DNA of 61,922 nt, taken from IMG/VR virus record IMGVR_UViG_3300009678_000065, positions 1-61,922 of that record; one strand, given 5' to 3'. A program made the position numbers and the translations under genes. Below, piece after piece: positions 15,880-51,912 of this stretch; positions within the stretch are counted from its first letter, which is position 1, and each line of letters opens with the position of its first letter. Under the pieces are notes generated by a model. The model saw only the letters and a list, made by a program, of their open reading frames with translations, ran no database searches and was not told where the DNA came from. The DNA is from a virus. Taxonomy: Duplodnaviria > Caudoviricetes.

Positions 15880-15884
15880 GGTGT

Positions 15885-36194: not shown

Positions 36195-36490
36195 TACGCG
36201 TTGATCGGTGCGCCCATCACTTCAAAGTTGTGATTGGGCAGGTCCACCTTCGTGAGAAGATCCAGCCGCGTGAGCGGCGAGGGTTTCCCAACTGCCCGTC
36301 TGGTCTTGGGGTCGATCGCTTGCACCTTGACGTACGGCACGTTGCCGCTCCACGTTGGACGCACCGCGATCTCCAAGACGTGCGCCAGGGTGACCCAGAG
36401 GCTCGACGATTGCCGCCCTGGGTAGATGAGGTAGTCCCCGACCTTGATCGGTTTGCCGAGGACGTCGGTGACGACAAGCGGTTCGTTCAT
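36194..36490 (-). CDS. Small beta-barrel (SH3-like) hypothetical protein
   Basis: DVLGKPIKVGDY; coupled to neighbours. Confidence 0.55.
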   Translation of the reverse strand: MNEPLVVTDVLGKPIKVGDYLIYPGRQSSSLWVTLAHVLEIAVRPTWSGNVPYVKVQAIDPKTRRAVGKPSPLTRLDLLTKVDLPNHNFEVMGAPINA

Positions 36491-37059
36491 AGCGGGAGTA
36501 GCTCCTTGTTGGGCAGGTAGTTGAGCGTCATGGTGATCTCGCCCATCCGACGCAGGCCGGGGATCATCACCTGGTCTCGATCGGGCGTGCCACCGAATTG
36601 CCCGCCGTACGTCACGTCGATCATCTCCCGGTGCATGGACGGCGCGCTGATCGACTCCAGTTCCGCCACCACGACCCCATCGATCTCCAGCATCGTCGGC
36701 TTGGCCGAGCGAACCTTCGCAGCCCTACTTCGGGGTTCCCGAACAGGACGTGGGGCGGGGCATCGCACGCTGACCTCTTTGAATTCGCCTGTAGGCCGGA
36801 TGCCGATGTCCATTGTGGCCTGGCCGTCATCGGACTCGTTCATCGTCTGGTTGGTCACGAAGCCCATGAACTCGTAGCTGATGGTCTGGCCGTGCTCTTG
36901 GAAGGTGATCAGGAACTTCTTGACCCCATCTGCGAGAGCCGTTGGCGCAAGAACCGTGGGCGCTTCCGGCGCGAGGGCACGTTCGAGCACCACCTGCGGG
37001 TTGACCGCGAGGGCCGCGCCTGCGGCACCCATCCATTGGAGGAAGGTTCGGCGGTTCAT
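36487..37059 (-). CDS. Tat-signal protein that is a circular permutant of the tail tube protein
   Basis: MNRRTFL twin-arginine signal; aa ~42-91 align to tube aa ~87-136 and aa ~121-183 to tube aa ~17-73. Confidence 0.8.
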   Translation of the reverse strand: MNRRTFLQWMGAAGAALAVNPQVVLERALAPEAPTVLAPTALADGVKKFLITFQEHGQTISYEFMGFVTNQTMNESDDGQATMDIGIRPTGEFKEVSVRCPAPRPVREPRSRAAKVRSAKPTMLEIDGVVVAELESISAPSMHREMIDVTYGGQFGGTPDRDQVMIPGLRRMGEITMTLNYLPNKELLPL

Positions 37060-37343
37060 GATGGGACGTCTTCCAAGTAGAGACCAGCGTTTCTCGTGTC
37101 GGCCACGTAGTCGTGTGTGCCCATCTGGTCATGCGCAGGGTTCATGTGGGTGTGCCAGATTGAGTCTTTGATGCGACCGCACCTACACGGCGCAGGACCG
37201 TTGCGCTCCAGGATCGCCGCGTCCAGTACACCGTGAAGAGCCTGGTGCATGAAGGCGCGGAACTTCCTCGTGAACGCCTTGTTGCCCGCGCGACGACGGG
37301 AACGCCGTCGTCGCATGCGGAGCAGTTGCTTGTTGCGGCTCAC
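37056..37343 (-). CDS. Arg-rich hypothetical protein
   Basis: Coupled overlaps with both neighbours. Confidence 0.55.
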   Translation of the reverse strand: MSRNKQLLRMRRRRSRRRAGNKAFTRKFRAFMHQALHGVLDAAILERNGPAPCRCGRIKDSIWHTHMNPAHDQMGTHDYVADTRNAGLYLEDVPS

Positions 37344-37630
37344 ATCGTCACCAAAGGAACGTTCAGTTCCACGTGGTATTCGTAGAGACCGTCACCGATG
37401 TAGCGACGGTGCAACGTGTGGTTGCCGAACGATGCCTTCCGTACGTTGCGTAGCTGCGCGCTGACGCTGGCCGGAGGATCGTTGGTGGCTTGGGAGATCT
37501 GCGGCAGCGTACGCCACACCCCATCCCTCATCAGGTTGAAGATGCGTTCGTACTGCGAAGCCAACCGTTCTCCATCTCTGGGGCGTTGGTAGTCAGCCCC
37601 AGAGAATCGTCCCACTTGTGGAGTGTCCAT
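37340..37630 (-). CDS. Winged-HTH DNA-binding protein
   Basis: IFNLMRDGVWRTLPQISQAT..ASVSAQLRNVRK..GLYEY. Confidence 0.75.
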   Translation of the reverse strand: MDTPQVGRFSGADYQRPRDGERLASQYERIFNLMRDGVWRTLPQISQATNDPPASVSAQLRNVRKASFGNHTLHRRYIGDGLYEYHVELNVPLVTM

Positions 37631-37637
37631 GCCCGGC

Positions 37638-37868
37638 TTACCGACGGCGCTCGACGACGCCTTCCAGGGCCGCGATGTCGGTGCGGAGGTTCGAGATGCG
37701 CGGCGCGTTGTCTTCCTGCACGCGCTTGGCGTCAGCGCTCTCGGCCTGGAGGTTCTTCAGCTCCGACTGCATGGTCGAGATGCGGAGGTTGAGCGAGTAC
37801 GTGCTCAGTCCCGAGTGATCGCGGGCGGTGATCTGCGCGCGGGTTGGTGCCTTGGCCTTGCTTCCCAT
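37638..37868 (-). CDS. Small coiled-coil protein
   Basis: GAAGGAG RBS; heptad pattern. Confidence 0.6.
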   Translation of the reverse strand: MGSKAKAPTRAQITARDHSGLSTYSLNLRISTMQSELKNLQAESADAKRVQEDNAPRISNLRTDIAALEGVVERRR

Positions 37869-37902
37869 GTGTGTGCTCTCCTTCGTGGTTGACGTTCGTG
37901 AA

Positions 37903-37963
37903 ACCGCCCGAGCGGGAATTGCACCCGCGCGACCCTGGCCGCGATCTGATGTCACTAGGCGGT
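37903..37963 (-). ncRNA. Small tRNA-like RNA (T-arm, no anticodon arm)
   Basis: ACCGCCT/GGGCGGT closing stem, GCGGCC/GGTCGC stem, GCGGG-TGCAATT-CCCGC 5-bp/7-nt T-arm. Confidence 0.45.
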
Positions 37964-37969
37964 CGTTGA

Positions 37970-38572
37970 CTACCTCGCCCAGCCCGCGTCGATCGACGGG
38001 TTGGTGTCCTGGACACAGACTTCGTACTCAAACCCCAGGACCTTCTGGTTCGAGCGGTTCTCCATGCGCCGGATGACTCCGCGATAGAAGTCCTCCGCGC
38101 TGAAGGGACTGACCGACCGCTTGGTGAGGTACCAGCGGTTGCCGCGATACAGGTCGCGGCTCGACATCGGGATGTTGCCCAGCATCGGGCCTTCCAGCTT
38201 GACGTGGCACTCGTAGTACACCGGCCGCTCTTCGGCGGTCATGATGTTGACTTCGTGCTTGACCCGAACAACGCGCGCGTCCTTGTAGTCGGCCCCGAGC
38301 TTCTCGATCAACACTTCGGGGTCCTCGCCCAGGGCACACATCAGCTGCAAGTTCATGTTGTTCAGCTCGATGTGCAGCGGCTTGACGTCGAGGTCGTGGC
38401 AGAAGTTGAACCAGTCAATCGGGTTGATGTCCTCGACGGTGACGTGGTACTCCTCGATGCGTTCAGCGGGCTTGAAGGGGCTGTGATCACCCTTGTGGTT
38501 TTTGTCGAGGGCGCAGAGCACTAGCTCCGAACCCGCTTCGATCTTGAAGTCACACGTTTCACGCTTCGCCAT
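37970..38572 (-). CDS. Hypothetical protein with ExHV/RxKxE motifs
   Basis: EYHVTV, RVKHE, YYECHVK, EVCVQDTN..DAGW; TAATG coupling. Confidence 0.6.
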   Translation of the reverse strand: MAKRETCDFKIEAGSELVLCALDKNHKGDHSPFKPAERIEEYHVTVEDINPIDWFNFCHDLDVKPLHIELNNMNLQLMCALGEDPEVLIEKLGADYKDARVVRVKHEVNIMTAEERPVYYECHVKLEGPMLGNIPMSSRDLYRGNRWYLTKRSVSPFSAEDFYRGVIRRMENRSNQKVLGFEYEVCVQDTNPSIDAGWAR

Positions 38573-39012
38573 TAGTTTCTCCCAAAGACTCGGTAACGGG
38601 TTTCCACCATCCACACTCGGTCGGTCCCGAGTTCACGAAAGAAGTACACCGCGCCTGTAATCGTCACGGTGATGCGGTCGCGCCAGGTCTTCTCCCAGGC
38701 CACCGACCAGTCTTGCTCGAAGAACGTGCCGCCCTGCTTTAGATCGAACCACCAGGACCCGCTAACCGTGAAGTTGGCTACGCACATTTCCACGCCAGGC
38801 ACGGATGCGAGCGTCCATGTCCCGGTTGCGATGTTGTACACCCGGCCGTGGGTGGCGGTGAGGTCCAGCGTTTGCGCGCGGGCGGGCGTTGGTGCAAGAA
38901 CCAGGGCCAGCAGCACGCTGAGCAGGCAGATCTGGATGAAGCGCTTGGCAAGGAACACCAGCAGCTTGGCGGTGAGCAACCCGGCGACGACGGCGAGGAG
39001 GGGTGTCAACAT
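38572..39012 (-). CDS. Exported small beta-barrel-like (outer-membrane-type) protein
   Basis: Hydrophobic leader ending ARA-Q, then amphipathic aromatic beta-strands. Confidence 0.55.
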   Translation of the reverse strand: MLTPLLAVVAGLLTAKLLVFLAKRFIQICLLSVLLALVLAPTPARAQTLDLTATHGRVYNIATGTWTLASVPGVEMCVANFTVSGSWWFDLKQGGTFFEQDWSVAWEKTWRDRITVTITGAVYFFRELGTDRVWMVETRYRVFGRN

Positions 39013-39279
39013 TTGTGGTCTCGTGTTGGGAACGAACCCTACGGCTGCAAGCCCTGGTCCAGTTTGATCTCGTAGGGCTGGCCGTTGATGGTGACCCTGC
39101 AGCCACCGTACGTGAGCGTGGCCAGCGTGAACAGAATGCACACGACACCGATTGCACCGAGAAACGATTTCATCGACTCAACTCCTTCAAAGCCCGCGCG
39201 CAAATGTACGCGCGGATGGGATCGCAACACATCACCAGCACGTAGGCGACGGCCAGCGCAATGATCACGAGTGGAACGC

Positions 39280-39528
39280 TCATGGTTCTCCTGCTTCCTT
39301 GTACAGTCGTGCGGCCGACTTCTGTTCGCGGGCCGTTGCCTGCGGTAGGTCCTCGCAGAATGGACACTCTACTTGGCCTGTCTGCACCTGCTTCTCCAGG
39401 TAGCCTGGTGGCAGCGATGCCAGCTGGTGTTGGGTCAGGCTGATCTTGTGGTGGCACTCCAACCAGATGATCATCCGACGCTGCGAGGCCATCGCGTCAA
39501 CGACCCGCATGATCTTTTGCATTCTCAT
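39280..39528 (-). CDS. Zn-finger hypothetical protein
   Basis: LECHH..CPFC; ATGA overlap. Confidence 0.55.
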   Translation of the reverse strand: MRMQKIMRVVDAMASQRRMIIWLECHHKISLTQHQLASLPPGYLEKQVQTGQVECPFCEDLPQATAREQKSAARLYKEAGEP

Positions 39529-39857
39529 AGGTCGTACCCGAAGGGATCGTCGGGGTTGAGCCGGGCCTGGGCCGCGTCCTCGGCCTGCTTGGCCAGGCGA
39601 CGGGCCTGCCGACGTTCGGCGCGGTGCGTCAACCACTTGGAGAACCGACCCCAGACGCCCATGCGGGGACCAGGGCGACGGCACGGGCCGCATCGCGGCG
39701 GTGAAGACGACGGCGGGTTGAACATGGCGACGATCACCAGCACCACCGCGCCTAGCATGACCCTGTCGCTGTCATAGATTCCTCTTGGCCCACTTCCAAG
39801 TGACGTGGCCGATGAAGATGCCGAGTCCCGCGCCCACCAACCCGGCAAGTACGTGCA

Positions 39858-40460
39858 TCACTTGCGCCAGCTCACTCCGAACCTGGCGTAACGCACTGCG
39901 AACTGCGCGCGGACCATGTCGGGAGTCATGTGCGTCATGTACTTCGGCAGGCGCGGAGCAATCTCTCGCATCTGCTTCACCGTTGAATGGGTGATCCACT
40001 CTTCGGCCACGGCCTGGTCAAGGTCGTAGTTCACCTTGAAGTCGCGCTGGTAGCGCAGGGTAATGCGCTCGAACACCGCAGCCAGGTCGTCGGCCACCTT
40101 GATCTCGTGCTTCTCTTCGGGTGTCAGCCCGTGGTACCCGAGGGCCAAGGCGCAAGCCTCGTCCCACTGCGCCTCCAGCGCGCGGAACCACACCATCTCG
40201 GGTGCGTGTTTCAGCTTGCTGGACATATCACCGAGGTAGGCTTCCGGGTTGTCGTGGTTCAGCGCTGGGAAGGACAAGGCCGGGCGCACCAGGTCTCCCA
40301 CGAGACAGGCGTGCTGCCCGACCGCATAGAACTGTCGGATCTGGCCGGTGTACCTGCAGAGGTTGGCCAGGGCGACGATGATGTCCTCGATGGAGATGTC
40401 AGCTGGCTTGGGGTTGCCCAAGTCCAGCCGACGTCCCGTGGCCGTGAAGAAGGCAATCAC
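39858..40460 (-). CDS. HD-domain phosphohydrolase (YfbR/YfdR-like)
   Basis: IEDIIVALANLCRYTGQ..QH..HDNPEAYLGD..IKVAD. Confidence 0.85.
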   Translation of the reverse strand: MIAFFTATGRRLDLGNPKPADISIEDIIVALANLCRYTGQIRQFYAVGQHACLVGDLVRPALSFPALNHDNPEAYLGDMSSKLKHAPEMVWFRALEAQWDEACALALGYHGLTPEEKHEIKVADDLAAVFERITLRYQRDFKVNYDLDQAVAEEWITHSTVKQMREIAPRLPKYMTHMTPDMVRAQFAVRYARFGVSWRK

Positions 40461-40699
40461 GCGCGTGTGACGGCGCGGGCGCGTTCGCCCTTGCCCGGTT
40501 CCTTGTTGGGTTCGGTGTACGGCTCGAACACTACGTCGATGCCCTCTTCCAGTTCCTCAACCGGGATGTCCGTGTTGTTGAAGTGAAAGAAGCGTTCGAC
40601 GCCGCCCTCGTCCTTGATGAAACCGTAGCCCGCGCCACACCCTCGTTCGATGCGGGCACCTGGCTTGGCCTTCTTGATCGCAATGATGCGTCCGTTCAT
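40457..40699 (-). CDS. Cold-shock domain protein
   Basis: GYGFIK (RNP1), FFHF (RNP2), KGERARAV. Confidence 0.85.
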   Translation of the reverse strand: MNGRIIAIKKAKPGARIERGCGAGYGFIKDEGGVERFFHFNNTDIPVEELEEGIDVVFEPYTEPNKEPGKGERARAVTRA

Positions 40700-40713
40700 G
40701 TGACTCCCCGGAG

Positions 40714-41109
40714 TTAAGCTGCTGTTTGTTGGAGTGATGCACGTCGCGCTGACTCTGCACGTTGGCGATGGCGTTGCCGCTTCAGCGCCTTGCTGAGAGC
40801 CTTACCCAGCCGTTGGCCAGGCAAAACGTGTCGCAGGCTTCCATCCGTAAAGAACTGCATGGGCTTCTTGTCGAGCATGCGAACGAAGGCACCGGCGATG
40901 CCGCGCGCCACTGGAACCCTGTGCAGGTTCTTGAGAGTGGTGTAGGGAGTGCGAGGACGGTACTTCTTCTTGCCCTTGGGACGCTCCTGTAGCATCCCAG
41001 GAATGTCGCGGGCCGCTTTCACCAGGCGGGCAAAGGACTTGCCGACGCCAGCCATCTCGGCTCTCGTGCGCTTGAGGTTCTCTTTGAACTGCTTGACCAC
41101 ACCCATCAT
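40714..41109 (-). CDS. Highly basic hypothetical protein
   Basis: GAAGGG RBS; K/R-rich. Confidence 0.55.
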   Translation of the reverse strand: MMGVVKQFKENLKRTRAEMAGVGKSFARLVKAARDIPGMLQERPKGKKKYRPRTPYTTLKNLHRVPVARGIAGAFVRMLDKKPMQFFTDGSLRHVLPGQRLGKALSKALKRQRHRQRAESARRASLQQTAA

Positions 41110-41182
41110 GTTCGTGTCCCCTTCGTTTTGATCGTTGAGATGCGAGGTGCTCGACCACCAGGTGGTGATCGAGCGGTCCTCG

Positions 41183-41353
41183 TTACGCCAGCTTGAAGCC
41201 GACGCGCTTGGCCAGGAGCGATTCGATGAAGCTGTTGAGCGACACGTCGCCCGCAGCCTTGATCACCGCTGCCTTGAGTCCCTTGCGGAACCGCAGGACC
41301 ACCTGCTCTCGGCCGGTGCCCGCCTTCTTCGCTGCCTTCTTCTTGGTTGCCAT
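41183..41353 (-). CDS. Ribbon-helix-helix (Arc/HicB-like) regulator
   Basis: QVVLRF..LKAAVIKAA..SLNSFIESLL; AGGAG RBS. Confidence 0.75.
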   Translation of the reverse strand: MATKKKAAKKAGTGREQVVLRFRKGLKAAVIKAAGDVSLNSFIESLLAKRVGFKLA

Positions 41354-41417
41354 CTGCTGACTCCTGTAGTGGTCGGTTGCCGTTGGATGCCGGTCCCTGC
41401 TGCAAGCAGCGTGCCGG

Positions 41418-42176
41418 TTAGTGTCGAAGGAACGTGACGTCGTTCTTGGTGCCCTTGAAGCAATAACCGCACGCTTCGCAATTCGGTTGACGCTTGGTCT
41501 CCTCCGGGCACACGTAGCTGGCACCGCCGTCGAGCGTGGCCAGGTTATGCGTCACTGGGTCCTCGGCGTGGGCGGCAACCTGCTGTGGCGTGCCGCCCCG
41601 TACGTCGCCGTCAATCCAGGCCCGACGCCAACCCGAAGGAGGCATCTCGGGGATCGATTCGTCCATCGACGCGAACATCTGCACGTTCGGCAGCGCCCGA
41701 AGGGTCTCCAGGTACGGGAGCAACTCAGCTACGCGCCAGGACCGGGTGTACACCCACATCGTGACGTCCGGCCGCTCCTTCATCCGGGTGATCCAGTTCT
41801 CGATGTACGATATCGAGTCGAAGTCACCGCTGACGTGCAGGCGTAGCAGCTTAGCGTCGGCGGGGATCTCCGGAACGTCCATGCCCCGATTGGCCCGCCA
41901 CATCTGTTCCACCGCGCCGTGCTCCTGGACTGGGCGCACCGCGTAGCAGATCTTGCGGCACTCCTCGCTCGACCCTGGGCAGGTTCCCGTGTCCTTCACG
42001 CCCCACGAACTCATGCGGCTGACGTCGAGACCCAACGCCGGTTGAGTATCGAGGCCGGGCATACGGGAGAACGTGTACACGCCCAAACCGATCTTGAGAT
42101 TGCCGCGACCGAACCGCGAGATGACTACCCCACGCGTATCCGGAATATGCACGACCAACTTGCCAGTAAGATCCAT
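41418..42176 (-). CDS. Gp88-like (radical-SAM-fold) protein
   Basis: GNLKIG, TCPG..C...CYA, RLHVSGDF, WVYTRSW, CPE..CEACGYC. Confidence 0.75.
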   Translation of the reverse strand: MDLTGKLVVHIPDTRGVVISRFGRGNLKIGLGVYTFSRMPGLDTQPALGLDVSRMSSWGVKDTGTCPGSSEECRKICYAVRPVQEHGAVEQMWRANRGMDVPEIPADAKLLRLHVSGDFDSISYIENWITRMKERPDVTMWVYTRSWRVAELLPYLETLRALPNVQMFASMDESIPEMPPSGWRRAWIDGDVRGGTPQQVAAHAEDPVTHNLATLDGGASYVCPEETKRQPNCEACGYCFKGTKNDVTFLRH

Positions 42177-42663
42177 AGATGCTCCGGTCCCAAGGACCCA
42201 GATAAGGGGCGGTCGCCCCGGTGAACGTGACGGTCGGCCCGTTGGGCAGTACGGGCGGGATCTGGGTTTCGTTGGGCCGCAGAATGTCTGCAGCCTGTTG
42301 TGGCGTGAGCGGTCGCGCCTGGGTGAACCTGATGACACCCTGGGCGAACGCCGGGGCCGACAAGAGCAGGAGCAATATCACCGGCGTGATCCTCGTGACG
42401 ATCCACTTCTTGGTGCCCTGGGGATCACCATGAGTCGTGACCTCGATCATCCGGCAGCCCTCCGGCACGTGCAAATGCAGAGCGACGTTTGCATCGCCCT
42501 CCCATTCAAACGACCTGGTGACAGCTACTCCGAGATGAACCTGTGCGATGTCGTCCGCAGGGAAGTCCATCTGAATGCGGGTGACGTCCTGAACGGGGTG
42601 ACCGTCCAGTTCGATGGCGGTGGCTCCGTGCGGCCCTGGTGTGCTGATCTTGACCTGACTCAT
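41851..42663 (-). CDS. Scrambled tail-tube-like N-terminal domain + signal/TM segment + low-complexity tail
   Basis: GGAGG RBS; HG.T.I...G.PV, VT.I....P.D and IEVTTH match segments of 24522..24950; PVILLLLLSAPAFAQ. Confidence 0.6.
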   Translation of the reverse strand: MSQVKISTPGPHGATAIELDGHPVQDVTRIQMDFPADDIAQVHLGVAVTRSFEWEGDANVALHLHVPEGCRMIEVTTHGDPQGTKKWIVTRITPVILLLLLSAPAFAQGVIRFTQARPLTPQQAADILRPNETQIPPVLPNGPTVTFTGATAPYLGPWDRSIYGSYWQVGRAYSGYAWGSHLAVRSRQSQDRFGRVHVLPYARPRYSTGVGSRRQPHEFVGREGHGNLPRVERGVPQDLLRGAPSPGARRGGTDVAGQSGHGRSGDPRRR

Positions 42664-42674
42664 GACTCCCTCCG

Positions 42675-43679
42675 TTATGCTGCCTTGTTGGTGTCGTAGT
42701 ACTCTTGCAACGCGTTCTTGATGCGGGTCTCCGCGATCGTGAAGTACTCGGCCTCCCGCTCGATGCCGATGTAGTTCCTGCCCTCTAGGACGGCTGCGAC
42801 TCCGCACGTGCCACTGCCCATGAACGGGTCAATGATCGTGCCTCCCGGCCGACTGACCAGACGGATCAACCGCCGCATCAGTTCGATGGGCTTCACGGTC
42901 GGATGAAAGTTCTGCGCCATGACGTCCTTGACGACCTTGCCCTTGGCGTTGGACGTCATGTGCGAGAGCCGGTTGTCCTTAACGACTTCCGGCAGATCGC
43001 CGCAGTAGGCGTCTCGATCCTTCGGGGACGGCTTCGGCACGAAGAACGAAGCCTTGTTCTCCATGACCATGCGCGCGAGATCTTCGTCGAGGGCCACGGC
43101 CTCCTCCGAGACCATCACGTTGGTCGGATGCTTGCCATCCTCTGCCTTCCAACCCTGGGCGTTCAGTTGGCCGCGTCCCGTCGTCTTGAACAACTTGTTC
43201 AAGTCCTTGAGGTTACCCATCTGACCCATGAACCTACCACACAGGATGGGTTCAAAGCCAGGCCGTGGGTCGTTGGGGTTCTTGACCTGGCCCGAGGCGT
43301 ACAACCAGGCGAACCCGCGTACGATGGGTAGCCCAGCCAGGCGGTAGCCGCGCCCGAGGAGGTCGAGCGTAGTGCTATCGGAGAAGGCCAGGACGTGCCC
43401 TCCAGCCCAGAGTCTGTCCATGACCCCGCGCACCCAGCCTTCGGTGAACTTGGCGAACGCTTCTGAGTCTTGCGACAGGTCGCCGCCACCCCGCTCGTCT
43501 TCAAAGGAATCCCAGTCCTTGGAACCTCCGAAGTCAAAGCCGTACGGCGGGTCGCACACGCAGGCATCGGCCTTGGAAATTTTGCCAGGCGTCGGGTACA
43601 TGCTTTTGAAGTCCATGTTGTTGAGGAGTTCCAAGCAATCCCCATTGTGCAAACTGATGACTAGTGGCTTTGCACTCAT
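42675..43679 (-). CDS. N6A/N4C DNA methyltransferase (beta class)
   Basis: GDCLE, CDPPY, HPTVKP, IIDPFMGSGT. Confidence 0.92.
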   Translation of the reverse strand: MSAKPLVISLHNGDCLELLNNMDFKSMYPTPGKISKADACVCDPPYGFDFGGSKDWDSFEDERGGGDLSQDSEAFAKFTEGWVRGVMDRLWAGGHVLAFSDSTTLDLLGRGYRLAGLPIVRGFAWLYASGQVKNPNDPRPGFEPILCGRFMGQMGNLKDLNKLFKTTGRGQLNAQGWKAEDGKHPTNVMVSEEAVALDEDLARMVMENKASFFVPKPSPKDRDAYCGDLPEVVKDNRLSHMTSNAKGKVVKDVMAQNFHPTVKPIELMRRLIRLVSRPGGTIIDPFMGSGTCGVAAVLEGRNYIGIEREAEYFTIAETRIKNALQEYYDTNKAA

Positions 43680-44039
43680 TATGTAATCCCTTTCCCAAAA
43701 GTGTCCTTAGTGATGAGCTGGTTCGGCCTTACAGATGAGCTGGAAACCAGGCACGCATGTTGAATAATGAAAAGACCAACGGAGGGCAATCAAGCCCAAA
43801 CGGATGGAGGGTAGACAAATGGCAAAGAGACTCAACAACGAATCGCTGGTGCGCGTCGAACCGCTCTCGCAATGACACTGAGGGACGTCGGTCGGGATCA
43901 ACCCGGCCGACGTTCTCATCTGCAATGGGGCCTGGTCCGAGTCGCACGGACAGCATCGTCATTTGAGGAAGGTGTGCCGGTTGTACGGGTCCCTTCGTTT
44001 GGACGCTAGTAGCTTTCACTTCTCCAGACCTTGTCTCGA

Positions 44040-44846
44040 TTAGAAGGGAACCTTGTCCTTCTTCTTGTTGCCGCCCTGGCTCTCCGGGGCCTCGTCTGCC
44101 GCGCCATCCGGCGCATCGTTCACGACCTGCTCGTCGGTCGGGATCGCCTTGTCCTTGATCTGTTCGTAGATCTTCTTGGCGTACGCAGCCTGCTCGACGC
44201 TCGGCTTGCCCGCCGTCTCGACCGCGAACACGCCGAACTTGCCAGCGTCGTTCTGCTGCAGCTGCGACGTGATCTTGAACTTGGCGATGAAGGCCGGACC
44301 CTGGATGGACCCTGCCCACTTGGCCAGCGTCTGTCCCGCGCCGAACGACTTCGACTTGAACGAGACGATCGCCAGCTCCGGGTACGCGCCGTTCAGGATC
44401 AGGACGACCCAGTCGTACACGCGCACACCTTCGGGGTGTGGCTTGCCCTTGCCCTTCCAGTTCTTCTTCTCTTCCTCGGTGGGCCACTCGCAGCGCGGGT
44501 CGTCCCAGGCGATCTCCTCGCCCATGCGGCCGTTCTCGTCGGGCAGGTACGCGCGCTTGCGGTGACGCAGCAGCTGGACTTCGACGGGACCCTTGCCGAA
44601 GACCTGCTTGGTCTCCGTGTTGTAGATGTCGCCCAGCTGGATGCCGGGGATGTAAGCGTCCCCCGTTTCATCCTTGGCCTTGGACGTCAACTGCGCGAGG
44701 GCCAAGAACGCGGGCTTCCAGTCGGCGGCAGTGATGCCTTCCTTGCCGCTCATGTCGTTCGCGCTGTACCCTTCCATTGGCGCGAACGTTTCCGCGATGG
44801 CCGTGTTGCCGCTCTGTGCGGCCAGACGAGTGTCTTCCGTGCTCAT
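44040..44846 (-). CDS. Putative single-stranded DNA-binding protein
   Basis: Replication context; acidic flexible tail ending VPF. Confidence 0.55.
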   Translation of the reverse strand: MSTEDTRLAAQSGNTAIAETFAPMEGYSANDMSGKEGITAADWKPAFLALAQLTSKAKDETGDAYIPGIQLGDIYNTETKQVFGKGPVEVQLLRHRKRAYLPDENGRMGEEIAWDDPRCEWPTEEEKKNWKGKGKPHPEGVRVYDWVVLILNGAYPELAIVSFKSKSFGAGQTLAKWAGSIQGPAFIAKFKITSQLQQNDAGKFGVFAVETAGKPSVEQAAYAKKIYEQIKDKAIPTDEQVVNDAPDGAADEAPESQGGNKKKDKVPF

Positions 44847-44851
44847 GCTCT

Positions 44852-45406
44852 CTACTCCTTCTTTGATGACTTGACGCGCGACAGGTCGGCTTTGAGAAAG
44901 ACCTTCACGCCAGGAACCGAACTCCGAACCTCCGTAGTGTCTTCCTCGCCGTTCTCACCAGGGATGGTGATGACTTGTAGTTCGCCCCTGGCCGCTTCAT
45001 CTTTCACGAATGATTTGAGACGGCTGGCCAGCTCCGTGTTGGAGAGGTTGAGCTGATCCTCCATGCCGTGGGTGCGGAAGTACTCGACGATCGCTGCGGG
45101 GTCTTCGCACACCGGGTAAGGCTCAAACTTCTCCGTCCAGGTGTAGCCGTTGACCATCGCGCCATCGACACCCTTCGCTGCGAGACGCTTGCGGATGAGG
45201 ATCTCGCGGGCGTCCATCTTGAGTTTGTTCGCCTTCACCAGGGCGGCAAGGTCGTCGGACTCTTTCCACAGCGCGTTGTACTCGTCGGTGAGCTGGCCGA
45301 TGTCGGCCGCGTCGATCTTGTTCAGTTCCTCGCCCAAGGCCATGTCCCGAAGCGTCGGAGCCTTCTCTGGAACCTTGCCTTTGAGGTGCGCCCATTTACT
45401 TGCCAT
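44852..45406 (-). CDS. Conserved phage replication-region protein
   Basis: Coiled N-terminus, LKSFVK..VPGVKVF; between SSB-like gene and helicase. Confidence 0.6.
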   Translation of the reverse strand: MASKWAHLKGKVPEKAPTLRDMALGEELNKIDAADIGQLTDEYNALWKESDDLAALVKANKLKMDAREILIRKRLAAKGVDGAMVNGYTWTEKFEPYPVCEDPAAIVEYFRTHGMEDQLNLSNTELASRLKSFVKDEAARGELQVITIPGENGEEDTTEVRSSVPGVKVFLKADLSRVKSSKKE

Positions 45407-45412
45407 GCGGTT

Positions 45413-45709
45413 TCAACTCCCTGCAGGAATCGTGCCTGCCATTTGTGTCCCCGGTTGGGGACACCGTTTCCGTTGGATCACCGCGACGAGGTCGCGTGGC
45501 CCAACGAGCCTGGCCCCGCACCGAATGGCGAGGTCACGTTTGGTGACGCAGACATCGAAGTGCTCTCGATGCGTGCCCGCGTCTTGAAGGTGCCGTCGAT
45601 CGACACCGATCGTGTCGGCCATCGCCAGCAACTCATTGGTGGTGTCCGCGATCATGTGGCACATGAACATGCCGCGATAGCGCGCCCGGTAGTTGTCAAC
45701 GTAGATCAT
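45413..45709 (-). CDS. DUF4031 protein
   Basis: MIYVD..CHMIADT..EL..MA..IG..HFD..R..AI..GA. Confidence 0.85.
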   Translation of the reverse strand: MIYVDNYRARYRGMFMCHMIADTTNELLAMADTIGVDRRHLQDAGTHREHFDVCVTKRDLAIRCGARLVGPRDLVAVIQRKRCPQPGTQMAGTIPAGS

Positions 45710-46025
45710 GGGTGGGCACCAGAACATCGATGTGTTGATCCACCCATCGAGTGTAGAACCAGAACCGCACGCCCACTTTACGCTTGCCCGGATCAGAGCA
45801 GCGTCCGTCCATCCAGTGGGCGCGGATGGTGATCAAATGCCACCACGGCCAGGTCTGAGGACCGTGCGTGGGGTTCCATTTCCACTTCCAGTCGTCGCGA
45901 GCACTGTACGTGAGGAATGATCTCACCCACGGATGGTCGCGCCACATCGTAGCGTGGTAGATGAAGAGAGAACCCTCTTCCATGAGCAACCACACGAGCA
46001 TGCCGAACGCAATCAAGTAGATCAT
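45696..46025 (-). CDS. Trp-rich membrane protein
   Basis: N-terminal TM; ATGA overlap. Confidence 0.5.
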   Translation of the reverse strand: MIYLIAFGMLVWLLMEEGSLFIYHATMWRDHPWVRSFLTYSARDDWKWKWNPTHGPQTWPWWHLITIRAHWMDGRCSDPGKRKVGVRFWFYTRWVDQHIDVLVPTHDLR

Positions 46026-46402
46026 TTGATTTTCCTTAAGTAGCGTGCCGCAGCACGAAGTACCACCGGGTTTTCTCCAAACAAGGACAGGCCACTGTTG
46101 CAGCGACGACAGAGCAAGCCACGAATGACTTTCGTTTTGTGGTTGTGATCCACGGCGAGACGGCTACGCTTGCCGGTGACTTGGTGCTTGATGCGTTCTG
46201 GTCGTCGGCAGATCGCACACCGATGTAATTGCTTCCGTGAGAGTCGATCGTAGTCTTCCTTCGTGAGGCCCAGACGTCGCGCAGTCCACGTTCCGATCTT
46301 CTGGTGGTAGTGTTTCTTGACGTTGGACAGAGCCTTGGTGCGATTGTTCCAGTAGTACTTTCGACTGGACGCACGATGAACGGCCTTGGACTTGTATGGC
46401 AT
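46022..46402 (-). CDS. Endonuclease VII-like HNH nuclease
   Basis: CAIC..LAVDHNH..IRGLLC..CN. Confidence 0.88.
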   Translation of the reverse strand: MPYKSKAVHRASSRKYYWNNRTKALSNVKKHYHQKIGTWTARRLGLTKEDYDRLSRKQLHRCAICRRPERIKHQVTGKRSRLAVDHNHKTKVIRGLLCRRCNSGLSLFGENPVVLRAAARYLRKIK

Positions 46403-48069
46403 CAGCCTTCGTCCTGTAGCTTCTGACGCCAGGTGGCCGTGGTCCACTGAGCAATGTCATCCTTGCCGCGAAGGGCCGCGAGGATATGATGGTCGATGGT
46501 ACGCTGGCCTTTGGGGCCGGTGGCGACCACGTCCACGTACTGAATCTTCTCCGTTTGGCCTGGCCGGTCAATGCGCCCGCGTGCCTGCAGGAACACCCGA
46601 AGGTTAAAGTCGTGGCTCAGGTTCACGGCCATGCTGGCACCCGAGAGGTTGAGGGCCGCGCCGCCCGCCTGTGGGCTGCCGACCACGCCGTTCTTGCGGT
46701 CGGGGATGATGGCCGGGTTCAACGCGCGCACGGCCAGCTCACGCTCGGCCTTCTTCTGCCCGCCGTACAGCAGGAACATCTCGCGGTCCAGGTGTCTCTT
46801 CGGGGACCCAGGCTCGAACGCCGCAGCGCAACGCTCGATCTCCTTGCGGAAGCGTGCCCACACCAACAGCCTGGGGGGTAAAGGATCGATGTGCGACAGC
46901 CAATCGAGAAACCCATCGAGCTTCTCGCGGCCGATCTCCTTGGTTTCCGCTTCAACTAGCGCTGGGATGAATCCACTCTCCTCATCGATCAAGTCGTCGA
47001 GGCTGGCCATCTCCGGGTCCACGCCCTCCATCGACATGTCAAACTCACGGATGCCACCAAGGTAGCCGCTGGTGATCTGGGCCAGGCGCAGGCCGCGCAC
47101 GATCGCTTGCTGCGTCATGCTGGCCTTGGAGATTCCCGAGCCGTCGTCGATCCATGCGAGCATGTTGTCTCGCATGTCCCTGTACATTTTCCAGGTGGTT
47201 TTATCGTCGAGCTTGGCCTCCACCATCACTGGATCAAGAATATCCGGTAGGTCGAAGCACTCTCGAGTCTTTCGTCGCAGCACGTGCGGAGCGACCTTGG
47301 CGCGCAACTCCTCCAGATTCTGCCATCCGACGATCATGGGGAAGTTGACGTTGGGCTTCAGCAACGCATAGTGCTGACGGAAGCGGGTCGTGGAGGTAGA
47401 GATCTTACTGCGGCCAAAGCGGTCCCGGTACTCGAACCCGAGAATGCTGTCGTCCAGCATCTTCATCTGGGCGTTAAGATCCATCGGGTTGTCAGCGATG
47501 GGAGTGCCGTTCAACAGGGTGACCCGCTTGGCCATCTTGCGTATCGTGTACGCTGCCTTGAACTGGACCGCGCCCTGGTCCTTGAGCATCCATGATTCGT
47601 CGCAGACCAACCAGAACCTACGCAGGGCCAGGTACTTGAGCAGAGGATGGAGACGCTCTTCGCGTCGGACGAATTCATAGTTGGTCACCAGCCATCGTAG
47701 AAACGTGTCTTCGTCGGTGCGTGAACCGTGGATGCCTCGCTGCACCCGCAGGTCCGGGTTGGCGATCGAGTACTCTCGGCAAGCGTACGGCACCGTGGGC
47801 CAGCTGTGCTTGGCGATTTCGCCCAGGGCCGGGTCCGGGTTGGCCCACACACCTCGCGCGAACGCCGGGCAGAGCACCAGGATCAGGTCCAGTTCACCAG
47901 CCTCGAACAGCAACTGGGCCGCGTCAATAATCTGTTTCGTCTTACCGCATCCGACCTCGTCGGCAAGCAGGAAGATGTCTCGCTCGACGAGAGCGAACAC
48001 TCCGTCCCTCTGATGTTGCTTCGGCGGGTACGTGCATCGGTGTTCCCAGGAGGTGGTTGTGGTCGTCAT
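46402..48069 (-). CDS. SNF2-family SF2 helicase
   Basis: LADEVGCGKT, VCDESW, LNGTPI, QARGRIDRPGQ. Confidence 0.92.
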   Translation of the reverse strand: MTTTTTSWEHRCTYPPKQHQRDGVFALVERDIFLLADEVGCGKTKQIIDAAQLLFEAGELDLILVLCPAFARGVWANPDPALGEIAKHSWPTVPYACREYSIANPDLRVQRGIHGSRTDEDTFLRWLVTNYEFVRREERLHPLLKYLALRRFWLVCDESWMLKDQGAVQFKAAYTIRKMAKRVTLLNGTPIADNPMDLNAQMKMLDDSILGFEYRDRFGRSKISTSTTRFRQHYALLKPNVNFPMIVGWQNLEELRAKVAPHVLRRKTRECFDLPDILDPVMVEAKLDDKTTWKMYRDMRDNMLAWIDDGSGISKASMTQQAIVRGLRLAQITSGYLGGIREFDMSMEGVDPEMASLDDLIDEESGFIPALVEAETKEIGREKLDGFLDWLSHIDPLPPRLLVWARFRKEIERCAAAFEPGSPKRHLDREMFLLYGGQKKAERELAVRALNPAIIPDRKNGVVGSPQAGGAALNLSGASMAVNLSHDFNLRVFLQARGRIDRPGQTEKIQYVDVVATGPKGQRTIDHHILAALRGKDDIAQWTTATWRQKLQDEG

Positions 48070-48331
48070 GCTCTATTGGTTGAGTGACCATAGTGCCCTC
48101 CATCCGTTTCACGCAGCGCCAGCAGTCGCCGCCGCAGTTCATCCTTGGATCGTCCGGTGCTGCCGACCGCCAGTGGACCATCTGGCGACCGCAGGTCTTA
48201 CATTTGCCTGGATTGATATCGTGGGTCCGAGGCACTGACGACCTCCGTCCGTGGAAACAACTTGGACCCGAGATAGGCGAGAGCGAGGTACGCCGCGCCC
48301 ATCCCAGCTAGAATATCGATGATCGTGTGGT

Positions 48332-49330
48332 TCAAGCTGACTCCTTCGTTGGATACTTGCCGTCGATGGCTGCTTTGCAGATGGCCTTGACCTCCGGCGA
48401 CATGCCCGTGGCCGTGAACGCTATCCACTCTAGGTCGCGTTTGGTCATCATGTCAAGCCTTTTGCCAGACCATTTCTTGCCAAAGTTCACAACCGCCGCG
48501 CCATCCTTCCACACGATCTTCCCTTCGGGGTCGATCGCGTTCGGGTCGCGCGGGTAGCACAGTTCGTGGAGTTCGGCCAACGTACGGGGCAGGTTGGGGA
48601 AACGTTGCAGCTGGGCCACGATGACCCGCAACGACGCGTGAACGTCGGCGGACGCACCGTGCGCGCCAGCGTGGTCCTCATCCAGGAACGCCCGTACGGC
48701 ATCGCTGAGGCTGCGTCCCTGGGCGACCTGCCAGAGCCGGTACCCGTCCAGAATGCGGGCACCACTGTACGACCAGACCTTGCTCACCCGCTCGAACTCG
48801 GCTTTGATGAGCGGCAGGTCGTAGCTCTTCATGTTGTACCCGCCGTAGTCACAGTCTTGGAATCCACGCAGAAAGCTGTCGGCCAAGGCCGCAAATGTGG
48901 GTGCGTCCTTCACCATCTCGTCGGTGATGCCGTGGCCCTCGTAGACACCACCCTCCCCGAAGGTGGCCTCCTTGGGAATCGGGATGGTGGGGTTGATGTA
49001 CGTGTGCCAGTCGCGCATCGAGCCGTCCGGTTTGATCTCCGTGAAGTGCAGAGAGCAGATGCGGTCGGTCGATGGGTTGCGTCCGGTGGTCTCGGTGTCC
49101 AGGATGAACAGCGGGCGGTCCAACGGCACCAGTTCGATGAGAGACTTCACCGCTTGCAAGAGCAAGATCCGTCGGTGCTGGATCTCCATCATCCGTTTGT
49201 AGTTGGCCTCGTGCTCTTCAAAGGTCAGCTGGTGGCCAGGGCACTCCGGCAGCAGGCTGCCCTCCGCGCCACCGCATACCAGGCAGTTGGCCAGGCCGTC
49301 GTCGCGGCCTTCTTCTAGTTGATGTTCCAC
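48332..49330 (-). CDS. DEDDh 3'-5' exonuclease (DnaQ-like) with N-terminal Cys motif
   Basis: ILDTETTG, GYNMKSYDL, AHGASADV, VNFGK. Confidence 0.88.
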   Translation of the reverse strand: MEHQLEEGRDDGLANCLVCGGAEGSLLPECPGHQLTFEEHEANYKRMMEIQHRRILLLQAVKSLIELVPLDRPLFILDTETTGRNPSTDRICSLHFTEIKPDGSMRDWHTYINPTIPIPKEATFGEGGVYEGHGITDEMVKDAPTFAALADSFLRGFQDCDYGGYNMKSYDLPLIKAEFERVSKVWSYSGARILDGYRLWQVAQGRSLSDAVRAFLDEDHAGAHGASADVHASLRVIVAQLQRFPNLPRTLAELHELCYPRDPNAIDPEGKIVWKDGAAVVNFGKKWSGKRLDMMTKRDLEWIAFTATGMSPEVKAICKAAIDGKYPTKESA

Positions 49331-49335
49331 GGGTT

Positions 49336-49590
49336 CTACTTTCGGGGTGGCGGTGCTTCTTGCACGCTGCCGTCTCTGAGAATCAACCCGGTGGTCCGAT
49401 GGCACTTCGGACAGGCGGACGCGATGGCACCGCCTTGGTTGACGGGGACCGTCCATACGTGTTGGCACCCTGGGTCCTTCTCAGTGCCCTTGCAGATCAC
49501 TTCACCGGAGTACCGCCAACCGATCCGCGCGCCCTCGACGGCGCTGCCGCCACCGAGTCGAGCGAAGGGTGAGTCTGGGTCCATTGGCAT
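49336..49590 (-). CDS. Zn-ribbon protein
   Basis: C..PGC..CPKC. Confidence 0.55.
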   Translation of the reverse strand: MPMDPDSPFARLGGGSAVEGARIGWRYSGEVICKGTEKDPGCQHVWTVPVNQGGAIASACPKCHRTTGLILRDGSVQEAPPPRK

Positions 49591-49825
49591 TACGTGGTCC
49601 TCTTGATGGCCGCGCAGATTTCGTCGCGGATGGTGGTGATGCGTCGGTGGAAACCCTCCGTCTTGTCGAGCGGCACGAACGGCTGCTTGCGCGCGATCAG
49701 CGGATGCAGGTGCGTGGTGACAATGATCACCGCTCGATGCGCGACGTTCTCCGGGTAGTGAATGGTGCAGTGGTCCCGGCCCTCGTTGGCCTGGGCGATG
49801 CAGCCTGGGTACTTGCAGGGGTTGA

Positions 49826-50050
49826 TCACTTCTTCATCACCCCAACGCCCAGAGGCCATTCCAGAACTCCGTCAGGGCCGGGCACCGGCCACCGTGACAG
49901 CTGGTAGATCTTGTCGCACGCGGGGTTCTGACAGGGCCTCGTCGCGCCCACTGCACCGACCAACATGAAGCTGGTCTTGCATGGACACTCGATCTGAATG
50001 GTGATGAAGAAGTCCGTGACCTTTGGTTGACCGATGATCGGAATGTTCAT
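49826..50050 (-). CDS. Zn-ribbon protein
   Basis: CPC..CQNPAC; ATGA overlap. Confidence 0.5.
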   Translation of the reverse strand: MNIPIIGQPKVTDFFITIQIECPCKTSFMLVGAVGATRPCQNPACDKIYQLSRWPVPGPDGVLEWPLGVGVMKK

Positions 50051-50556
50051 GGCTTGATTCCCTGTAGCGATTTGATGACCAGGATCGTTGGGATCGTGTA
50101 CGACCAATCGTTGACGGTGATCGCCCCGTGAACGTTCAGGGCGCTGATGACGTCGCCCCGCGTGAATTCCCCGAGGGACGTCACCATCGGTTCAGTACCG
50201 ATCTTGTTCCACTCGCTTGGCCCGGCCACCCTGGGCCACAGCTTGGCGAACAGCGCGCGTGGTTGCCACACGGTGACCTGGTAAGGATCGTCTTCGTAGA
50301 CGACCACCCAGGACCGTCCGCCATGCACCGCGCCCAGGCGATGGCACAAGGACAGCTGCGCTCCGTCGCAGATCTCCTTGAGCGACCGACCGACCTTCTG
50401 GTGCTTCAGTTCGATGCCCGCCCACCTGGCCAGCATGTGAACGGAGATGTCCGGGATACCTCGGGTTCCGGTGTCCATATGCTTGAGGACCTCGGAGCCG
50501 GGTAAGCGGCCCCGAAGGTCCTTCAAGACTTCCACGGTGATCGATCGCTCGTTCAT
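50047..50556 (-). CDS. VRR-NUC / PD-(D/E)xK nuclease
   Basis: E.S..RGIPDI..GIELK..Q. Confidence 0.75.
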   Translation of the reverse strand: MNERSITVEVLKDLRGRLPGSEVLKHMDTGTRGIPDISVHMLARWAGIELKHQKVGRSLKEICDGAQLSLCHRLGAVHGGRSWVVVYEDDPYQVTVWQPRALFAKLWPRVAGPSEWNKIGTEPMVTSLGEFTRGDVISALNVHGAITVNDWSYTIPTILVIKSLQGIKP

Positions 50557-50888
50557 GCACCCTTGATCTGAACACCGTGTTTCATCGCGTCGAGCACCGA
50601 TCGCTCGACCTTGCGTTTGATCCGATCGAGGGCCTGCTGTACTGGTACGCCGCCGTCGAACGTTGTCGTGCATCGACAGTTGGGAGTCGGCGGAAACACG
50701 TCCGAGTCCTTGATGACCGCCTCGCTCAGCCCGTACGTGTACGCCGGGCCACCGAAGTCCATCTGCAACCGTACCTGGTCAGGCGTCTTCACGAACATCG
50801 CGCGCCGACGTCGGCCTGGGTCGATGTACAGTCTCTCGCCTGTCATCACCCGATCGAGTAGCTGCGATTGCCAGGCGGCAACCGGCAT
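50553..50888 (-). CDS. Mosaic protein with TerL-, portal-, gpF- and tape-measure-like micro-motifs
   Basis: WQSQLLDRVMTGERLYIDPG / KTPDQVR / PPTPNCRCTT / RKVERSVLDAMKHGVQI; start codon uncertain. Confidence 0.5.
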   Translation of the reverse strand: MPVAAWQSQLLDRVMTGERLYIDPGRRRRAMFVKTPDQVRLQMDFGGPAYTYGLSEAVIKDSDVFPPTPNCRCTTTFDGGVPVQQALDRIKRKVERSVLDAMKHGVQIKGA

Positions 50889-50910
50889 CGAGGTGATGAG
50901 CGACCAGAGA

Positions 50911-51912
50911 TCAGTAAGAGACCTGAAATGGACGCACCAGGACCGAGATCCCGGTGAGGTCCTTTCCGGCGATCTTGTTCTCGGTGGCGTAGTCCACCAT
51001 GACAGCGGTCTTCGCCGCCGCCTCGTCCTTGGCCAGGAACGGCGCGACCACCTTGGCGATCTCGGTCGGCGTGCCCTTGTCGTCCACCTTCACCACCACC
51101 GCATCAAAGATTCTCATGTCGTCTGTCTCCTTAAAGTTGAGTGCGAAACTCATTTTACCGCTCCGAAGTATGCCGTTCGCGTAGCCTACGTTCGGTGTGA
51201 TCCACTCCTTCGTGATCAACTCCTTCAGGCGACGCTTCTGTTCCAGCGTCTGCTCCATGTACTCGTCACAGTCCTTGATCGTCGCATATGCGTCGTGCAG
51301 CACCGGCTTGCCGTAGGTCGGGTCGGCGGTGAGAATGTGGTAGGGGATGCCCAGGTTCTTCGACATCTGAACCAGCTGCGACTTGGCCAGCGACTCCGCG
51401 TGGTAGTCGCGCCGTTCAGTGTTAGACACGACGTGAACCGACACCCGGCCGCGTAGGGGATCGAGCTGGCCGACGTATCCGCTGACTTGGGTTTCTTGGC
51501 CCTCAAGCACCAGATGCACCATCTGGTTGTGAGCGAACAGAGCCTCGAAGCCCGAAAAGTACCTTTCGGGAACGTGGAAGGTAACGACCTTCAGCGAGGG
51601 CTTGATGTAGCTGTCGTGGCCGAAGGTGGTGTCCCGTGGTCCCTCGTAATGTAGGTCGATCGTCTCGCCATCGAGGATGGCGAAGTGGGTGAAGCTCACC
51701 TCGATGGGCGGGCATTCGACGGTCACGTTCCAGTGAGGCTTGTTCTTCATGCGCTGGGTCTTGATGATGATCCCTTCGATCTTGCCCACGTCGGTGGTGC
51801 TGGCGTCAACGCGCATCCGCTTGCCCACCGGGTAGTACATGATCTGTCCGTCAGTGCAGACAAACTCCACGCGCCGATTGCGCGGGTCACCAATCTTAAA
51901 ACGTACACTCAT
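50911..51912 (-). CDS. Multidomain protein with tube-like and portal-like segments; probable nested in-frame start at 51117
   Basis: TAATG coupling at 51912; AAGGAG 9 nt before ATG 51117 (MRIFDAVVV..VLVRPF). Confidence 0.6.
   Translation of the reverse strand: MSVRFKIGDPRNRRVEFVCTDGQIMYYPVGKRMRVDASTTDVGKIEGIIIKTQRMKNKPHWNVTVECPPIEVSFTHFAILDGETIDLHYEGPRDTTFGHDSYIKPSLKVVTFHVPERYFSGFEALFAHNQMVHLVLEGQETQVSGYVGQLDPLRGRVSVHVVSNTERRDYHAESLAKSQLVQMSKNLGIPYHILTADPTYGKPVLHDAYATIKDCDEYMEQTLEQKRRLKELITKEWITPNVGYANGILRSGKMSFALNFKETDDMRIFDAVVVKVDDKGTPTEIAKVVAPFLAKDEAAAKTAVMVDYATENKIAGKDLTGISVLVRPFQVSY

Follow-up and report, generated by a model that had tools for sequence, protein, structure and literature searches.

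We analyzed a complete virus record of IMG/VR (IMGVR_UViG_3300009678_000065; Duplodnaviria, Caudoviricetes), referred to here as the window, which comprises 61,922 bases at a CheckV completeness of 100%, with a G+C content of about 60% and nearly all genes on the minus strand. Its replication arm contains four open reading frames (ORFs), here called genes 1 to 4, which an earlier reading of the DNA (the original prediction) had described as early-expressed decoys or mimics built from rearranged pieces of the phage's own virion and packaging proteins. All four ORFs are present, on the minus strand (Table 1), and genes 1, 2, and 4 are placed between the primase and the DNA polymerase, outside the late structural genes. 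The prediction holds in part, in that three of the four genes appear to carry sequence derived from the tail tube protein (TTP) and two of these are predicted to be targeted to the cell envelope, gene 1 by a twin-arginine translocation (Tat) signal and gene 2 by a membrane segment.

Gene 1 and the native tail tube gene

The window has a lambda-type tail tube gene in native order, which is the sole window gene matching curated tail tube models and whose product matched annotated major tail proteins in a tblastn search. When 42 replication-arm proteins were compared with 38 late proteins by all-vs-all BLASTP, the single clear match was that of gene 1 to this native tube, in two pieces of swapped order: residues 118-186 of gene 1 aligned with residues 14-76 of the native tube (E = 2e-7), and residues 41-91 aligned with residues 88-136 (E = 5e-4). 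The real BLAST score was reached by none of 200 shuffles of gene 1. The phrog_158 profile matches the N-terminal half-domain of gene 1 only (E = 1.2e-6).

Relatives of gene 1 were searched for among 1.84 billion representative proteins with HMMER, which returned 20 matches at E <= 0.001, including about 14 full-length relatives of 154-223 amino acids (aa) and three ordinary tube proteins. Gene 1 represents a rare family, some 15 divergent metagenomic clusters in which the Tat signal and the permutation are both retained, and the members that were looked up are all metagenomic singletons or pairs without names. In an alignment of 17 family sequences (29-77% identity), the C-terminal half of the tube precedes the N-terminal half in every member. 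Profile-profile comparison (hhalign) of this alignment with three native-order tube sequences, the lead one of which (P0022) is 82% identical to the native tube of the window, matched family residues 114-188 to TTP residues 10-89 (98.3%, E = 1.4e-14) and family residues 48-93 to TTP residues 96-138 (96.7%, E = 4.3e-10). These pieces cover TTP residues 10-138 of 142, and therefore almost the whole tube domain is present in gene 1. Searched against the PDB, the family profile had lambda-type tube proteins as its best matches, in the same swapped register and with weak scores (E = 0.048).

A first AlphaFold2 (AF2) run of gene 1 with 5 close sequences was too poor for use, with a predicted local distance difference test (pLDDT) score of 51.5. 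With the 17-sequence alignment, the model reached a pLDDT of 71.4 overall and 81-91 in both half-domains, with three long strands in the first half-domain, five in the second, and a disordered signal and linker.

The Pfam TAT_signal model matches gene 1 with 25.6 bits (cut-off 22.7) and 13 of the 17 family members at E < 0.1. Across the family, conservation is at least 90% at R3 and R4 and complete at L7, and the RR pair is found in 16 of the 17 sequences, while among the 80 window proteins gene 1 is the sole carrier of such a twin-arginine motif. Tat signals have a weakly hydrophobic h-region and a basic residue in the c-region; in gene 1, the mean hydropathy is 1.35 over the 13 residues after the motif, no 17-residue window reaches a hydropathy of 1.7, and the c-region contains Arg. 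Because the Tat signal is conserved, the product is predicted to leave the cytoplasm and to act outside it.

Further, at both its mature N-terminus and its extreme C-terminus, gene 1 is similar to the helix after the hairpin of the native tube, and its linker has about the length of the native N-terminal arm. Circular permutants usually arise by tandem duplication, and the permutation of gene 1 probably stems from such a duplication trimmed at both ends, since the helix likeness at both ends and the length of the linker are both expected from it. We also considered whether the linker is always basic and rejected this, its net charge across the family ranging from -5 to +8. It is very probable, from the alignments and profiles, that gene 1 descends from the phage's own tube gene and joins a Tat signal to a permuted domain, as the original prediction had read it, and the family is, by the same profiles, a newly recognized variant form of the tail tube fold.

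Between the window and its closest relative, G001 (56 kb, 91% complete), gene 1 has a dN (nonsynonymous substitutions per site) of 0.154, a dS (synonymous substitutions per site) of 0.567, and a dN/dS of 0.27, with dS of 0.02-0.2 in the neighboring genes. These ratios mark gene 1 as a constrained coding gene, under purifying selection, within a mosaic, faster-diverging patch. G001 carries both the native tube (95% identical) and the permuted gene 1 (74%). A match in G001 was found for 64 of the 80 window proteins, most of them 95-100% identical; among these 64, the least conserved are gene 2 (63%) and gene 1, and the tape measure protein (87%) and the tail-tip genes (77-79%) are also divergent.

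In scans of contigs and genomes, the permuted gene was not encountered beyond the window and G001. A scan with gene 1 found G001 only, scans with the family members A3, P0006, and P0012 found none, and a metagenome scan returned the same contig again. Two scans of genome contigs gave nothing besides one unrelated Tat signal, and neither tblastn of two divergent family members nor megablast of the gene 1 region matched isolate phages. Five further relatives, G002-G006, were retrieved by their primase (G003 is 100% complete), and a family profile search found no permuted tube copy in any of them; G003-G006, the four relatives matching the family profile, have native-order tube genes only.

Genes 2 to 4 and the corresponding locus of a relative

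Gene 4 had been described as tube-like and portal-like, of which the tube likeness stands at the level of the family. The gene 4 family (6 sequences, 47-89% identity) matched the tube alignment in hhalign (52%, E = 1.4e-4) and a 20-sequence profile of the tube N-terminal half more clearly (75%, E = 2.4e-5), and none of 100 column shuffles of the family reached the real score. A hidden Markov model (HMM) of the N-terminal half gave E values of about 1e-6 for two family members, 0.0024 for one, 0.007 for the window copy, and 0.085 and 1.8 for the remaining two, and 1,000 shuffles of each of four members tested never reached the real score. The G..R.....[FM]..N signature is kept in all 6 members with the spacing of tube proteins. 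In a six-frame search, the family profile picked out the native tube gene of G004 (E = 0.004). Taken together, the family profiles make it likely that gene 4 carries the N-terminal half of a tube domain. The C-terminal half was not detected in gene 4 (1.1%), and gene 4 as a permuted tube like gene 1, which a permissive alignment alone had suggested, was rejected. Searches of PDB sequences gave nothing relevant for gene 4, the protein Atlas gave no usable match, and a viral contig scan with its relative P0029 found none. Gene 4 has no export signal.

For gene 2, described as a scrambled tube with a transmembrane segment, the membrane segment was confirmed (hydrophobic residues 87-103), and the N-terminal ~80 residues resemble the tube N-terminal half with moderate scores. 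Single-sequence BLAST against the late proteins did not rise above background, 26 of 200 shuffles scoring as high as the real sequence. The N-half HMM picked out gene 2 among 115 proteins (E = 0.0045), a score reached by 2 of 1,000 shuffles of the window copy and, for the G001 orthologue, by none of 1,000. The three-sequence gene 2 family matched the N-half profile (hhalign 77%, E = 2e-5) and the gene 1 family (66%, E = 5.4e-5, 57 columns), with 0 of 100 column shuffles reaching the real score. On balance, these matches lean toward gene 2 carrying a tube N-terminal half ahead of a membrane anchor.

The gene 2 frame is conserved with G001 down to about position 42177, beyond which it is the frame of the overlapping GP88 gene (PF17338, 72 bits) that is conserved, and the last 108 codons of the gene 2 ORF are therefore doubtful. 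The gene 2 homologue of G003, of 109 aa, ends at the GP88 start. In both the window and G001, the gene 2 frame has no stop over the 108 codons that lie within GP88 (41851-42176 in the window), which could be an overlap, a frameshift product, or an alternative open frame in G+C-rich DNA.

As a control over the whole window, the N-half HMM was run on 1,190 six-frame stop-to-stop segments. Gene 1 and the native tube ranked first, followed by gene 2 (E = 0.068) and gene 4 (E = 0.077), with the next segment at E = 0.58.

Gene 3 had been read as a set of motifs from the large terminase, portal, gpF, and tape measure proteins, of which a 15-residue MuF motif remains. This stretch around P.CRC resembles the C-terminus of the MuF-family head morphogenesis protein (hhalign 29.9%, E = 5.6e-4; 0 of 100 shuffles for that pair), with the first Cys pair of the MuF C-terminus absent. 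In the best-of-38 BLAST comparison with late proteins, 19 of 200 shuffles reached the real score of gene 3. The MuF profile PF04233 had no match to gene 3 at E <= 10, one near-identical relative was found, and the protein Atlas gave a weak lead, a cluster with Phage_Mu_F in 10% of its members. Portal, large terminase, and tape measure likenesses were absent from the best BLAST and hhalign matches of genes 3 and 4, whose best-of-38 BLAST scores were at background.

Among 23,985 residues there are three occurrences of P.CRC, one each in MuF, gene 3, and a protein of 207 aa encoded at the syntenic locus of G003. This 207-aa protein ends with the C-terminal module of gene 4 (hhalign 98.9%, E = 1.2e-17), and the next ORF carries a clear tube N-terminal half (94-95%, E = 3e-8 to 9e-8). 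Pieces of tube and MuF motif thus recur, in other combinations, downstream of a polymerase that is about 50% identical. The two G003 ORFs overlap (54775-55639; L027 1384-2248), the first ~50 codons of the second overlapping the first in another frame, and the start of the second is a candidate only.

Genome context

Late genes of the window include, besides those in Table 1, head-tail adaptor, tail completion, and terminator-like genes and two tail chaperones, and the replication arm also has an exonuclease-like gene. Oddly, the native tube gene is found within the head module, flanked by the DUF2213 gene and a decoration-like gene. Before the tail chaperones, where a tube gene is usually placed, there is a terminator-like gene (15445-15981), and in Brevundimonas phage StAshley, the nearest isolate by capsid, the matching gap has no tube gene. 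By terminase and capsid, the nearest isolates are phages of Rhizobium, Erythrobacter, Acinetobacter, and Brevundimonas (33-36% identity), and because of these hosts a Gram-negative host is likely. No integrase was seen among the genes scanned, a subset of the window genes.

Table 1. Coordinates of the features discussed, by position in the window
Feature	Coordinates	Strand	Evidence or remark
Native lambda-type tail tube gene, 142 aa	24522-24950	-	PF16461 44.4 bits (cut-off 26.1); phrog_158 E = 5e-16
Gene 1, 190 aa	36487-37059	-	Tat signal and circularly permuted whole TTP domain
Gene 1, residues 1-31	36967-37059	-	Predicted twin-arginine signal, NRRTFL; Pfam TAT_signal
Gene 1, residues 38-99	36763-36948	-	Matches C-terminal half of native tube; hhalign; C-half HMM E = 3e-25
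Gene 1, residues 100-120	36700-36762	-	Pro/Arg-rich linker joining the native C- and N-termini; AF2 pLDDT 40-53
Gene 1, residues 121-190	36490-36699	-	Matches N-terminal half of native tube, including hairpin signature; hhalign; N-half HMM E = 8e-31
Lineage-specific island, 8 genes including gene 1	36194-39693	-	No homologue in compared parts of G003 and G005
Gene 2 ORF	41851-42663	-	Only about 42177-42663 conserved in frame; rest overlaps GP88 gene (41418-42176)
Gene 2, residues 1-86	42406-42663	-	Resembles tube N-terminal half; free-standing 109-aa homologue in G003
Gene 2, residues 87-108	42340-42405	-	Hydrophobic membrane segment, basic residues before it
Gene 3, 111 aa	50553-50888	-	ORFan; MuF-type motif at residues 63-77 (50658-50702)
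Gene 4, 333 aa	50911-51912	-	Predicted cytoplasmic; just downstream of DNA polymerase; family of 6 sequences
Gene 4, residues 175-262	51127-51390	-	Tube N-half-like strand-loop-hairpin with G..R.....[FM]..N
Gene 4, residues 263-333	50914-51126	-	Conserved C-terminal module; also in 207-aa protein of G003, same locus
Tape measure protein, 947 aa	11728-14571		Late genes
Major capsid protein	22914-23969		Late genes
DUF2213 protein	24985-26583		Late genes
MuF-family head morphogenesis gene	26810-27748	-	PF04233 48.7 bits; C-terminal motif echoed in gene 3
Portal	27748-29181		Late genes
Large terminase	30550-32100		Late genes
Primase-helicase	33608-35857		Replication arm
Helicase	46402-48069		Replication arm
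DNA polymerase	52217-54343		Replication arm

Gene 1 overlaps both of its neighbors by ATGA, an arrangement of translational coupling. A scan of its surroundings gave 0 promoter-like sites and fewer terminator-like sites than shuffled sequence would lead one to expect. In G003 and G005, the primase directly follows the homologue of the gene at 39858-40460, and the eight genes at 36194-39693 of the window lack homologues in the compared parts of these two relatives; gene 1 is therefore part of a lineage-specific island. Within this island, the 214-aa product of 37970-38614 matches PADLOC AbiEi models (E = 3e-9 and 1e-7) and no Pfam model at E <= 0.05, and 38572-39141 encodes an envelope protein with two strong hydrophobic segments, a tail of ~100 residues, and no family match. 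Just downstream of gene 1, the 98-aa product of 36194-36490 weakly resembles, in BLAST, the glycosyltransferase-like product of the late gene at 20098-20658 (24% over 106 residues, E = 0.003), which is also matched by the product of 50047-50673 (E = 0.038).

Elsewhere in the window, five methyltransferase- or glycosyltransferase-like genes lie between the head-tail connector and tail genes (17381-21359) and are almost identical in G001. Two small paralogous proteins, encoded at 51912-52220 and 21299-21580, match each other in BLASTP (E = 1.6e-5). The late paralogue (21299-21580) has a third-position G+C of 0.37, compared with about 0.75 around it, is absent from G001, and looks like a mobile insert, its sequence being perhaps T5orf172-like.

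Possible roles of the tube-derived genes

Compared with the lambda gpV-type tube (PF16461, Phage_TTP_11, phrog_158), both halves of the domain are found in gene 1 and, apparently, the N-terminal half only in genes 4 and 2. Unlike that tube, gene 1 has its halves swapped and an export signal added, the derived genes stand in the replication arm, and the whole-domain Pfam thresholds are not reached. Known offshoots of the tube fold include T5 pb6 (with tandem tube domains), Hcp, the N-terminal domain of the distal tail protein, and the tail terminator; these show the tube domain duplicating and taking new roles, yet they remain parts of injection machines. In the literature listings searched, no exported, permuted, or early-expressed tube paralogue was found, nor half-domains fused in replication-arm genes.

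Our leading explanation, which we advance tentatively, is that the replication-arm genes derived from the phage's own tube are non-polymerizing tube mimics acting in trans. What they would do is more doubtful. Such mimics may bind, in trans, a partner that normally contacts the tube N-terminal half. For genes 1 and 2, the likeliest partner would belong to a phage injecting into an already infected cell, namely its tape measure or its tail tip, to which a tube-like surface could plausibly bind, so that the two would serve as superinfection-exclusion proteins in the periplasm and at the inner membrane. The targets of gene 4 would be cytoplasmic factors that bind the tube. A role in phage-phage or phage-host conflict would fit the accessory status of the genes, the fast divergence that they share with the tail-tip and tape measure genes, and the envelope targeting of genes 1 and 2. 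It is a still bolder and rather unlikely extension that the genes form a kit of tube mimics in three compartments (the periplasm via Tat, the inner membrane, and the cytoplasm). Such a kit would catch tube-binding partners, which at the envelope could be the tail tip or tape measure of a superinfecting phage and in the cytoplasm a host sensor or the tail assembly of a rival.

Several phages are known to bar DNA entry with proteins that are exported or membrane-located, among them Ltp of TP-J34, Llp of T5, SieA of P22, and Imm and Sp of T4; in the portions of the published accounts available, some are made early by virulent phages, and exclusion of the Ltp type is treated in connection with the tape measure protein. 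As those portions describe them, these proteins are, like genes 1 and 2, envelope-located accessory proteins that vary between close relatives. No sequence relation to the genes of the window was found, and exclusion by the latter is a proposal only. We know of none among them that derives from a structural protein or uses Tat. None of the four genes matched a known exclusion, defense, or counter-defense family in PHROG, Pfam, or PADLOC or, for gene 1, in NCBIfam.

Several observations weigh against the mimic explanation. No Pfam tube model exceeds its cut-off in gene 1, and PF16461 matches only 4 of the 17 family members at E < 0.1. Foldseek of the gene 1 model, a check that the original prediction had proposed, found no match at E <= 0.001 in the PDB or BFVD, and the fold consequently rests on sequence profiles and a medium-confidence model. 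The NCBIfam Tat model TIGR01409 scores 15.2 on gene 1, just below its cut-off of 16.7. Cleavage of the signal is uncertain, because the only Ala-x-Ala present (Ala-Leu-Ala at residues 29-31) is followed by Pro, which is unfavorable for cleavage. Curated Pfam and PHROG profiles have no match to genes 2-4; as a single sequence, gene 4 is marginal in hhalign (score 21.3, rank 4 of 80), and in the six-frame scan single sequences of genes 2 and 4 reach only E of about 0.07. The divergence of genes 1 and 2 is accompanied by high dS (0.57-0.65) and may therefore be mosaic exchange and not an arms race. Moreover, the gene context of gene 1 comes from only two genomes, and the Gram-negative envelope is deduced solely from the nearest isolates (phages of Brevundimonas, Rhizobium, and Erythrobacter).

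Among the alternatives, the one that survives best, though we consider it improbable, is that the tube fold is only a scaffold or leftover, gene 1 doing something unrelated at the envelope, for instance masking a receptor or binding the cell wall, and the pieces in genes 2-4 being remnants of recombination or chance resemblances. Reuse of the tube fold in Hcp, the distal tail protein, and the terminator would be a precedent, and the mosaic nature of these genomes (neighboring-gene dS of 0 to 0.8), the short motif that makes up the evidence for gene 3, and the marginal single-sequence scores of genes 2 and 4 all agree with it. The invariance of the tube signature positions in the gene 1 and gene 4 families, at identities of 29-77% and 47-89%, respectively, argues against a mere leftover, as do the purifying selection on gene 1 and the fact that G003, with its distant polymerase, again has pieces of tube N-half and MuF motif at this locus.

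That tube-derived decoys occupy DSR2- or Avs-type sensors before the real tube protein appears, as the original prediction had proposed, seems less probable still. According to the parts of the sources available, tail tube proteins trigger DSR2, the phage protein DSAD1 blocks this host sensor by competing with the tail tube protein for it, and Avs proteins are reported to recognize tail tube and other core proteins by fold. DSAD1 is thus a functional model for a decoy, although in those parts it is not described as tube-derived, and gene 1 differs from it in being predicted to be exported. Gene 4 would suit such a role in lacking an export signal while keeping the most conserved tube motif in the whole family, and the genes sit in the replication arm, upstream of the late genes. 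However, gene 1, the only certain whole-domain copy, has a conserved export signal and is a poor fit both to titrating DSR2 or Avs and to poisoning tail assembly, because the Tat signal would remove it from the cytoplasm; the portal or terminase mimicry needed for the Avs part was not found among the matches described above, and the database searches gave no anti-defense or defense family. For the cytoplasmic gene 4 and the membrane-tethered N-domain of gene 2, the results speak neither for nor against acting as a decoy or in a dominant-negative way.

Least probable is that the fragments cap or poison tube polymerization, that of co-infecting phages or, as a delay, the phage's own. By their alignments, the N-terminal halves and the permuted domain would keep some subunit interfaces and lose others, and the free-standing N-half ORFs of G003 are what a capping fragment might look like. 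Against this, tails assemble in the cytoplasm, which gene 1 is predicted to leave, and the phage's own tube, 95% conserved, would be poisoned as well if neither timing nor specificity spared it.

The established roles of tail tube proteins are those of virion building blocks and, as found more recently, of triggers of bacterial immunity. A permuted and exported tube family would show phages recycling structural folds for jobs outside the virion, and the tube half-domains in neighboring replication-arm genes point in the same direction. If the genes are inert, they still caution that copies of late genes may hide among early ORFans. If they are true mimics, as our leading explanation has it, they would provide a natural example of protein evolution by permutation and new, testable mechanisms of superinfection exclusion and counter-defense, and, should the kit in three compartments be real, a new class of exclusion or counter-defense proteins made from a permuted and fragmented virion protein.

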